A stretch of 57,583 nucleotides of DNA, the filler included, from Squatina squatina (taxonomy: Eukaryota): NCBI GenBank assembly GCA_031763465.1. It is 3 parts of 3 records of this genome, joined end to end, with 100 filler letters (N's around TTAATTAATTAA, not from the genome) between each part and the next. Parts side by side here need not be neighbours in the genome. Positions count along the whole stretch, not along the records: positions 1 to 16,714 come from JARFOE010000192.1; 2 more parts are not named here. One strand, written 5' to 3'. Below are positions 9,765 through 52,709 of this stretch, one piece after another. The notes beneath the pieces were generated by a model that ran no database searches, was not told the DNA's origin, and saw only the letters and a list, made by a program, of their open reading frames with translations. Position numbers and translations under genes: made by a program. Position 1 is the first letter of the stretch. Each line of letters opens with the position of its first letter.

Positions 9765-9947
9765 CTGCTTCTCAATGAGGATGACTCGACCAAGAAGCTG
9801 GTCTTCAAGTCCTCTCATTGTGACAGTAAAGTCAATAATGGCGGTTTTAGCACTGATCTCAGGAGTGTAAGCAGGATTCGCCAACTTGGTGGTGGTATAC
9901 AAGGTAAATCCCAACATCAGATCGATTTCTTTGTCACCGACTTTTAC
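9765..9947 (-). CDS. Dynein heavy chain exon (AAA5)
   Basis: 183-bp exon [61 protein letters not shown]. Confidence 0.93.
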
Positions 9948-10434
9948 CTAACATGAAAGAAATGGGAGCAATATGTTTATTTCTTCTCATTCATTTGTTT
10001 ACATTTGTTGTAAATTTGAAATGCAAAAGAACAAATGTTCTGTAAAAGTAGTCCCTGGCTTTGGTGTGTCCACTTATTCGGGATCTGAAATTATTTAGAT
10101 GGTTTTACACCACATTTTTGTTTGACTTTTGTGAAAATATAATGTGCAATAGCAACATAGTACTGAACATAGTACAATTTGAAGAAAAAGAAATGTTTCA
10201 ATCCAATTAATAAAGGATACGGCTTGGCAGGTTGATTATAGTCTGAAGAATTAAAATATAAGAGCTAGGTCTGTCCATCATCCAGCTTGTGCTCAATTTG
10301 GAAAAACAGTACATGCGCAGTCCACTATTAGTCTTGAATACCACCACAACATTCTCATTTTGTAATTTATACCTGATTTGCCCAACACTAGTTTTGGGTA
10401 TAGTCCATAATCATTGCCAGTGGTTGAATTCAGT

Positions 10435-11603
10435 GCCCCTGAAATTGCGGTCCCTACGGGTGCGTACGAAGTGCGCACACACCCATACGGACCCCACAAG
10501 TTTCGGGTTTAGGGATGCACTGTGCATGCCCCTAAACTCGAAAGTTGCGATCTGTCAAGATTTCTCTTGATGGATCCGCTGCATCCGAATCTAAAGGGCC
10601 TCCTCTGGCGGGGAGTTGGGCTATTTGCCCAACTCCTGCCCAGCGAAAGTCCTTTATTTTCTTACGACTGAAAAAGCAGGCGTAAAGGCCTGCTTTTTCA
10701 GCCACAACACTTTTAAAACACAAAAAAATATTTTTTTCAGAAATTTAAATATTTAACATCAGTCACTTTAAAATATACAAATTTATTTNNNNNNNNNNNN
10801 NNNNNNNNNNNNNNNNNNNNNNNNNNNNNNNNNNNNNNNNNNNNNNNNNNNNNNNNNNNNNNNNNNNNNNNNNNNNNNNNNNNNNNNNNNNNNNNNNNNN
10901 NNNNNNNNNNNNNNNNNNNNNNNNNNNNNNNNNNNNNNNNNNNNNNNNNNNNNNNNNNNNNNNNNNNNNNNNNNNNNNNNNNNNNNNNNNNNNNNNNNNN
11001 NNNNNNNNNNNNNNNNNNNNNNNNNNNNNNNNNNNNNNNNNNNNNNNNNNNNNNNNNNNNNNNNNNNNNNNNNNNNNNNNNNNNNNNNNNNNNNNNNNNN
11101 NNNNNNNNNNNNNNNNNNNNNNNNNNNNNNNNNNNNNNNNNNNNNNNNNNNNNNNNNNNNNNNNNNNNNNNNNNNNNNNNNNNNNNNNNNNNNNNNNNNN
11201 NNNNNNNNNNNNACTATGCAAATTTATTTTCCAAAAAATTAATTTTCGGTTATAAATAATTAATTAAATTCTTTTGGGATTCATTTTACAAGTGTAATTT
11301 TTAAAAAATTTACTTTGAGTGTTTTTGGGGGTGGGTATCCCCATTCACACTAATGACAAATCCGAATGTACGGAACTCATCATTAGTATGAATGGGAATA
11401 CACTTACCTTGATTGGTTGGGCCCACCCACGTGATCCTATCTACGTCTGTGAACCGCATACATAGAGAGGATGCGTGGGCCTCTACACTGGCCTTCGCAT
11501 TTAGGCCTGGAACGACAAATGTGCAAAACTCCTGGACCCAAGTAATTTCATAGCATTTTTAATGGTTGGAGCCTTCCGCCCGCTCCGAAGGAATTTCAGG
11601 GGC
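10435..11603. mobile_element. Non-autonomous TIR element (PIF/Harbinger-type MITE), internal gap
   Basis: Perfect inverted ends TGCCCCTGAAATT (10434-10446) and AATTTCAGGGGCA (11592-11604). Flanks are AGT and AAT if the TIR starts at G. Multiple internal hairpins. 424-N gap inside. Confidence 0.8.
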
Positions 11604-11779
11604 AATATGTCAACGTTGCATCACAATGCTATTCTCAGTCAAGCTTAACTTCCATTGAAAAAAAATCAGCTTTCATTATTTGAATGAGGTGTGATTATAT
11701 GTCTATCAATATAAAAATCCTACTCTGAGTAAACATTAATTTCTTCAAAACGCATCATTATTTTCAAAACTGATCTTAC

Positions 11780-25395: not shown

Positions 25396-25705
25396 GGCCC
25401 TGAAATTGCGATCTCCCCGGGTGGGAATGATGTTCTCACGCACCCGGGGAGACATTGCATAAGCCGGTTATGGGGCTGTTCATCGTAAGCCCACATTACC
25501 GGCATTTGTGATCTGTCCAGAAGCTTTTGGACAGATCCAAGGCTGAGGCTGCGAAGCCCATCCCCAGCACTGAGCTTTGCGATATTTTTGAATTAATTGC
25601 GCTGGGGATCTCTTCAAATCTTTTAAGCATGGTAAAACCTAGTGTATCTGCTTGGTTTTACCATCGTAAGAAATGTTAAAAAATTTTAATTCCAAAAAAA
25701 TTAAT
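25396..25705 (+). mobile_element. Left arm of a hairpin-rich Harbinger-type MITE
   Basis: aat|GGCCCTGAAATTG followed by serial hairpins. Reverse-complement homologue at 52563-52709. Confidence 0.75.
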
Positions 25706-40786: not shown

Positions 40787-41375
40787 TAGAGTTCCTCAGG
40801 GCAGTGTCCTCAGCCCAACCATTTTCAGCTGCTTCATCAATGACCTTCATAAGGTCAGAAGTGGGGATGTTCGCTGATGACTGCACAGTGTTCAGTGCCA
40901 TTGGCAACTCCTCAGATAATGAANNNNNNNNNNNNNNNNNNNNNNNNNNNNNNNNNNNNNNNNNNNNNNNNNNNNNNNNNNNNNNNNNNNNNNNNNNNNN
41001 NNNNNNNNNNNNNNNNNNNNNNNGTGTTAGTCCATCTGTGTTTTTTCTTGCATCTCTTTCGAGTTGATACAACTGAGTGTCTTGGTAGGCCACTTCAGAG
41101 GGAAGTTAAGATTTGACGTTGACGTGCGACTGAAGTCATGTATAGGCCAGACTAGGTATGGAGGCTGGTTTCCTTTCCTAAAGGACATTAGTGAAGGTGT
41201 TGGGTTTTTATGACAATCCGACAGCTTCATGGTCACATTTTACTGCTGCTAGATTTTTATTTACAGATTATTTTTAAACTGAATTCAAATTCTCAAACTG
41301 CCATGGTGGGATTTGAACTCACATTCTCTGGATTATTAGTCCAGTAACATAACCACTAAGCGACCATATCCATTT
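40787..41375. mobile_element. CR1-type LINE fragments
   Basis: gagttcctcagggcagtgtcctcagcccaaccattttcagctgcttcatcaatgacc...FADDCTVF. A reverse-oriented repeat end follows the gap. Confidence 0.6.
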
Positions 41376-52562: not shown

Positions 52563-52709
52563 CATTGGATCTGTCCAGAAATTTCAGGACAGATCGTAAA
52601 TGTCGGTTATGCGGGCTTACGATGTGTAGCCCCATAACCGGCTTTTGCAATGTCTCCCCGGGTGTGTGGGAACATCGTTCCCACCCGGGGAGATCACAAT
52701 TTCAGGGCC
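52563..52709 (-). mobile_element. Terminal arm of a hairpin-rich Harbinger-type MITE (same subfamily as 25396)
   Basis: The reverse complement reads att|GGCCCTGAAATTGTGATCTCCCCGGGTGGGAACGATGTTCCCACACACCCGGGGAGA..., colinear with 25396-25540. Confidence 0.8.

Follow-up and report, generated by a model that had tools for sequence, protein, structure and literature searches.

The window analyzed here, a 57,583-nucleotide stretch made of joined parts of the Squatina squatina genome (assembly GCA_031763465.1), holds a complete non-coding element of ~770 bp that has TIRs of 18 bp and a 3-bp target, AWT. It also contains two incomplete copies of a related type, and the features of all three are collected in Table 1; the copies at 10435 and 25396 are on different contigs (C192 and C203). 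An exon matching Pfam AAA_9 (dynein heavy chain) lies beside the complete element, at 9801 to 9947 on the minus strand, and the element probably sits in an intron of a dynein heavy chain gene.

Table 1. Features of the element at 10435 and of related copies, in window coordinates
Feature	Position	Strand	Remarks
Complete subfamily-A non-autonomous element	10435..11603	+	Consensus 770 bp; assembly gap 10789-11212 inside
Left target triplet AGT	10432..10434	+	Middle base differs from right triplet AAT
Left TIR, ~18 bp	10435..10452	+	
H1	10447..10497	.	3' arm bulges of 4 nt and 2 nt; both sides change in 8/21 pairs
H2	10500..10544	.	Pairs 73-103 and 75-101 each in three Watson-Crick forms across subfamilies
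Invariant box TTGCGATCTGTC and H3 (10549-10576)	10545..10576	.	Outer stem fixed, loop free
H4 (core 10612-10636)	10593..10656	.	In all subfamilies; inner part rebuilt in B and C
H5	10660..10709	.	22-bp perfect stem in A consensus; 14 bp intact in 10435 copy
H6, long central palindrome	11340..11396	.	Arms largely rewritten between subfamilies
Minus-strand splice-donor-like, CCAAT-like, and E-box-like motifs	11403..11434	.	Putative; labels from consensus motifs
H7	11426..11482	.	Only in E, A, and D
H8 (decayed in 10435 copy) and right TIR	11563..11603	-	
Right target triplet AAT	11604..11606	+	
Subfamily-B copy, truncated, left 310 bp only	25396..25705	+	
Subfamily-B copy, left end up to assembly gap	52565..52709	-	

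Subfamilies, hairpin array, and invariant boxes

A search of the 1.5-Gb genome for AWT followed by the 12-bp TIR core yielded 4,852 exact hits, with sister families counted in, compared to 2 for a control. Copies were fetched by similarity and by pattern and are mostly best hits to a query, which biases the samples toward well-preserved copies. From these we derived five subfamily consensuses, based on 86 copies for A (the 10435 type), 114 for B (the 25396 type), 64 for C, 63 for D, and 31 loci for E. The consensuses are 749 to 775 bp long, with pairwise identities of 52 to 85% and a longest ATG ORF of 44 to 95 aa. Their TIRs match at 17 or 18 of 18 bases in A to D and at 12 of 18 in E, and the repeat, previously given as 12 bp, has a real length of ~18 bp. 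Copies diverge from their subfamilies by a median of 6.5 to 8.8% at non-CpG sites, and over 735 aligned bases the 10435 copy matches the A consensus at 91%. A covariance model search of 100 sources (912 kb) found no architecture beyond subfamily E. At six loci, we observed further families that have the TIR core and the AWT flank without the A-E interior.

The stems named in the preliminary description were found in place in the copies at 10435, 25396, and 52.6 kb, with 14 perfect outer pairs in H5 (10668 to 10701), 10 in the H4 core, 12 at 25412 to 25452, and 11 at 25629 to 25664. H3 and H5 do start at +114 and +233 from the TIR in both the 10435 and the 25396 copies. Compared to dinucleotide shuffles, folding gave z = -9.0 for 10435 to 10720 (DNA parameters) and z = -7.6 for 25396 to 25680 (RNA parameters), and 0 of 200 shuffles folded as well as the real left arms. 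The five hairpins first described are all present, but the set was incomplete, with more in the middle (H6 and H7) and at the right end (H8). Similarly, the stems said to differ strongly between 10435 and 25396 have real differences, but these were overstated, since the two consensuses are 70% identical over positions 13 to 141 and 59% identical over the whole element.

Each of the five subfamilies carries H1 to H5 within the left 285 nt, then an AT-rich spacer, H6, and, at the terminus, H8; H4 and the base of H1 are only loosely conserved. Positions 1 to 141 align without gaps in A to D at 69 to 95% identity, and the H1 loop of subfamily E is shorter by 2 nt. For one spacer, there are 928 matches in the genome at the normal length and 21 at +1. 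Exact matches to H3 together with its constant 12-nt spacer number 2,332 genome-wide, compared to 0 for a control, and the loops vary freely among them. Between consensuses, we counted 8 gap runs in the 195 nt of the AT-rich middle and 8 in the first 285 nt; since indels are also few in the AT-rich middle, constraint on length is not confined to the stems, which counts against the reading set out below, that DNA-level geometry is under selection. Frequent deletions of H5 in subfamily C were set aside because both C queries lacked part of H5.

Several short boxes are invariant in all five subfamilies, namely, ACGC (position 43), CGCAA (61), TTGCGATCTGTC (111), and GACAGATC (135), then TTAC, GCGTA, and TAAG around H5, and ATTGG (568), AGGTA (698), and TCGGAGGC/CTCCGA in H8. 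The earlier view that shape rather than sequence is conserved holds insofar as shape and spacing are kept, but sequence is conserved as well, in several boxes of 4 to 8 nt and in a 12-nt box that precedes H3 and extends into it. In the left arm, 95 of 190 paired sites and 23 of 83 unpaired sites are invariant. In B and C, TTGCGA occurs as a box at positions 11, 60, and 111, ~50 bp apart and with its orientation alternating, so that the middle box can pair with either neighbor. The boxes are candidate sites for a DNA-binding partner; in Harbinger3_DR, a Myb-like protein reportedly binds short sequence-specific subterminal palindromes. It could be argued that the stems never fold and are inverted double-stranded sites for a dimeric DNA-binding protein, co-evolving with it. 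The alternating boxes and the covariation of TIR positions 13 to 18 between the two ends agree with this explanation, but stems of 14 to 33 bp are longer than the usual binding site and single pairs take three Watson-Crick forms, and we consider it improbable.

CCAAT-like and E-box-like motifs, bordered by splice-donor-like motifs on opposite strands, were observed at 11403 to 11434 and at ~11535 to 11546, the labels at 11403 to 11434 following what we take to be the consensus forms of these motifs. The invariant AGGTA near +698 is directed outward at the right end. Judging from these motifs, the element possibly retains a bidirectional promoter.

Paired changes between and within subfamilies

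The compensatory examples noted earlier in H1 are real subfamily differences. Across the consensuses, 15 of 34 changed pairs are compensated in A-E (permutation mean, 3.0), 7 of 15 in A-D (0.75), and 7 of 17 in B-C (0.77), and 0 of 5,000 permutations reached the observed compensation in any of these sets, although five related subfamilies provide few independent events and the permutation test ignores the tree. These totals cover H1 to H3, H5, H6, and H8; H4 and H7, which are weaker, were left out. Thus, the covariation across subfamily consensuses on which the preliminary description turned is significant by permutation, and the alignment shows a conserved register. CpG decay does not account for the changes, many of which are transversions. 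The compensated share is only 41 to 47% of changed pairs, which counts against selection on DNA-level geometry, as does the incomplete retention of H4, H7, and the base of H1 across the subfamilies.

Among 34 real copies (52 pairs), the covariation score was 0.281, versus 0.158 in shuffles and at most 0.101 with partners slid, and changes on both sides filled 163 cells versus 72 in shuffles, while pair-count measures were not above shuffles (18 versus 19.5). Because of these pair counts, and because cells count related sequences repeatedly, the consensuses were compared as well.

The compensated share falls from more than 40% between lineages to ~2% after insertion (P = 1e-14, A-D plus B-C). 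For the inserted copies, non-CpG pairs were counted with subfamily-diagnostic sites removed, and we found 2,840 one-sided and 125 two-sided changes; 67 of these 2,965 changed pairs were compensated, versus 36 in a re-pairing control; the excess reaches significance in B alone. In A and D, stem decay keeps roughly the pace of unpaired sites, and in B and C it is somewhat slower. Since compensation is near absent in inserted copies, pairing is kept in the multiplying lineage and not after insertion. The small excess over the control indicates that neutral arm copying exists, which also counts against the DNA-geometry reading. With rRNA-like compensation between lineages and almost none in inserted copies, pairing either matters or is regenerated during amplification, and both possibilities have a bearing on the way MITEs become so numerous.

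A structured RNA, one of the forms of constraint proposed in the preliminary description, is not supported, with no G-U preference, no strand energy bias, and no Rfam match. In the comparison of G-U with A-C mismatches suggested there, the 1x1 stem mismatches on the plus strand, folded without G-U pairs, were 4 G·T, 8 A·C, and 12 other (P = 0.39). In the left arm, neither strand folds consistently better, and over the full length of the element, the minus strand folds as well as the plus strand or slightly better. Rfam gave no match over the element; its only match in the window is tRNA-like, at 41305 to 41364 on the minus strand (30 bits, threshold 29), and is probably a SINE head. Shared minor states lean to plus-strand G·T, in a model that allows G-U on that strand only. 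A transcript leader or small-RNA precursor under selection would be in keeping with the strong local folding and covariation, with the conserved promoter-like and splice-donor-like motifs at about +560 to +700, and with the several shared plus-strand G·T states. However, half of the stem mismatches are non-wobble and A·C exceeds G·T, the element has neither an Rfam match nor a strand that folds consistently better, and non-coding cut-and-paste elements are not copied through RNA, so that selection on an RNA has, in our judgment, a slim chance of being correct. The mismatch counts, the lack of an Rfam match, and the lack of a strand advantage point instead to a constraint at the level of DNA.

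Read by eye, matching indels are present in both arms of H5 (A versus D) and of H6 (D versus E), and most of H6 has been rewritten between A/D/E and B/C. Template switching is described as creating and maintaining stems, with matching indels as its signature (PMC8794818). The preliminary description had named template switching as a process that could undo its reading; the matching indels in both arms make it probably the source of the paired changes, but by itself it leaves the fixed spacing and the scarcity of compensation in inserted copies unexplained. Mismatched intermediates are also present as shared states, for example, T·G at 17-57 and A·G in H3.

With confidence a little above even, we favor the reading that the pairing and register of the end arrays are kept by selection on DNA-level geometry for mobilization, with arm-to-arm copying. 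Some paired changes would come from such copying (template switching) and others step by step by way of mismatched intermediates, and only variants that keep boxes, spacing, and pairing would go on multiplying, probably because a putative transposase and its DNA-binding partner read the boxes on ends extruded as hairpins or cruciforms. The persistence of bulges, spacing, and boxes argues that selection sorts the changes that copying supplies. Alternatively, the palindromes may maintain themselves without function, with an arm rewritten by template switching at replication or at the gap repair by which cut-and-paste elements multiply, and a register that reflects common descent; lineages passing through many such cycles would remain paired. 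This is what the indels matched between arms and the block-wise rewriting of H5 and H6, the lack of strand bias, and the small compensation excess in inserted copies would lead one to expect, and the mechanism is known (PMC8794818). However, bulges and single mismatches persist next to compensated pairs, the lengths of H1 to H3 are fixed over 30% divergence, compensation is ~20-fold rarer in inserted copies than between consensuses, and mismatched intermediates such as those at 17-57 and in H3 are shared; we regard maintenance without function as unlikely, if far from negligible.

Target triplets and donor bases

The flank consensus is AY-AWT-RT. A 3-bp duplication fits 10 of 11 paralogous empty sites, with 1 ambiguous (11 were informative among 87 queries), and these sites ruled out models with no duplication or with a 2-bp duplication. 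Among 98 full-length copies, the duplication is perfect in only 22, far below the prediction from 3 to 5% decay per TIR position, and the middle base matches in 44 (shuffled, 34.9). In ~5 of 18 informative copies, judged by eye, the flanks do not continue the same host repeat. Since mismatched flanks mean that rearrangement or mis-assembly contributes, we dropped the idea that carry-over from the donor wholly explains the low duplication identity. In the five full-length copies concerned, such flanks may have come about through adjacent deletions, inter-copy recombination, or mis-assembly.

The case for carry-over is drawn entirely from a host-repeat test. One site in an abundant host repeat is an insertion hot spot, with at least 73 and at least 69 element junctions on its two sides. 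The middle base is switched (to the opposite of A/T) at 18 of 142 hot-spot junctions compared to 26 of 4,165 empty sites (P = 4e-16), or at 6 of 73 and 12 of 69 junctions by side (counted by hand from the full lists). All 6 switched junctions on the first side have a full ATT, while among switched empty sites there are 18 with ATC versus 5 with ATT. The switched base fits ligation of a donor overhang; it may also have come from gene conversion between element ends or from assembly error. Excision of mPing is described as staggered and as leaving overhangs derived from the duplication (PMC4561436, PMC11254759), and the switched base, controlled from within one genome, is genomic evidence in favor of the staggered-cut model put forward for mPing. 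On such a model, excision would make staggered cuts through the 3-bp duplication, and the triplet from the donor would sometimes be ligated at the new site.

In two pairs of loci (L304/L388 and L192/L059), similar flanks have an element junction at the same base. L304 and L388 show opposite ends of the element (left versus right), which suggests an inversion between TIRs or an independent insertion.

A bolder proposal, which we hold to be possible but doubtful, is that this is a vertebrate PHIS transposon whose transposition complex needs a fixed-spacing train of extruded hairpins or cruciforms and which joins donor overhangs to its new site. The general view of DDE cut-and-paste transposases is that they read double-stranded end sequence. 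If the proposal were true, a DDE cut-and-paste element would have ends that are read by structure, and there would be a testable route by which MITEs outcompete autonomous partners.

Classification and relation to known elements

In 30 transposase loci and 120 kb around six hits of this fragmented assembly, we found no natural link between an autonomous partner and the element ends, so the filing of the 10435 element, which is Harbinger/Pangu-like, stops at PHIS-type MITE. DDE_Tnp_4 is abundant in the genome (150 scored among 32,675 candidates), and the fetched hits lacked element ends. Transposase pieces beside A and D ends were rejected as nested elements or as lying across an abrupt junction inside H6. 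The locus with a TIR and a transposase at L102, also one of the further families, spans an assembly gap, and a second copy was not found; the TIR-like end at L172 is the stop region of a transposase. A Helitron or Helentron, which has no target duplication and a single subterminal hairpin, was ruled out by the 3-bp duplication and the true TIRs.

At five loci, an A or D copy has another Harbinger-like element nested in its AT-rich middle, in most cases following TTA. Four of the nested elements are at one spot near +320, two have transposase remnants downstream, and their ends fold (several with z of about -2 to -4).

The element is of a known kind; its multi-hairpin end architecture was not found described in the papers searched, repeat libraries aside, where an entry may well exist. 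Its repeated short subterminal boxes presumably liken it to the Myb sites of Harbinger3_DR, and we take crocodilian Chompy and zebrafish Angel to be comparable foldable MITEs. We know of no covarying multi-hairpin register in Harbinger3_DR, Chompy, or Angel.

Strict PIF/Harbinger elements have a TWA duplication and an autonomous partner with a DDE transposase and a Myb/SANT ORF, while Pangu has an ANT duplication, TIRs of 11 to 40 bp that begin with AG or GG, and a transposase of its own clade with a second ORF that lacks known motifs (PMC4482050). The flanks here are AWT, which is not the TWA of strict PIF/Harbinger (Han 2015) and is the dominant subset of ANT, and the TIRs are within 11 to 40 bp and begin with GG. 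Thus, the element resembles Pangu in its ANT-type 3-bp duplication and in a TIR that starts with GG, but the 15 genomes listed for Pangu include no vertebrate, and the word "hairpin" does not occur in the main text of that paper (PMC4482050). The compensatory changes and matching indels resemble those produced by arm copying in template switching at RNA hairpins, which was described for rRNA and microRNA loci in a main text where "transpos" does not occur (PMC8794818), whereas the stems here are without an RNA signature. Like rice mPing and other Tourist or PIF/Harbinger elements, the element is short and non-coding, with TIRs, a 3-bp duplication, and excision that would be staggered (PMC4561436, PMC11254759). 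It differs from mPing, as far as the latter is described there, in its AWT rather than TWA target and in its seven to eight covarying subterminal hairpins. In addition, carried-over triplets of mPing were seen at Cas9-cut sites (PMC4561436, PMC11254759), while here the putative donor base is found at ordinary insertions.
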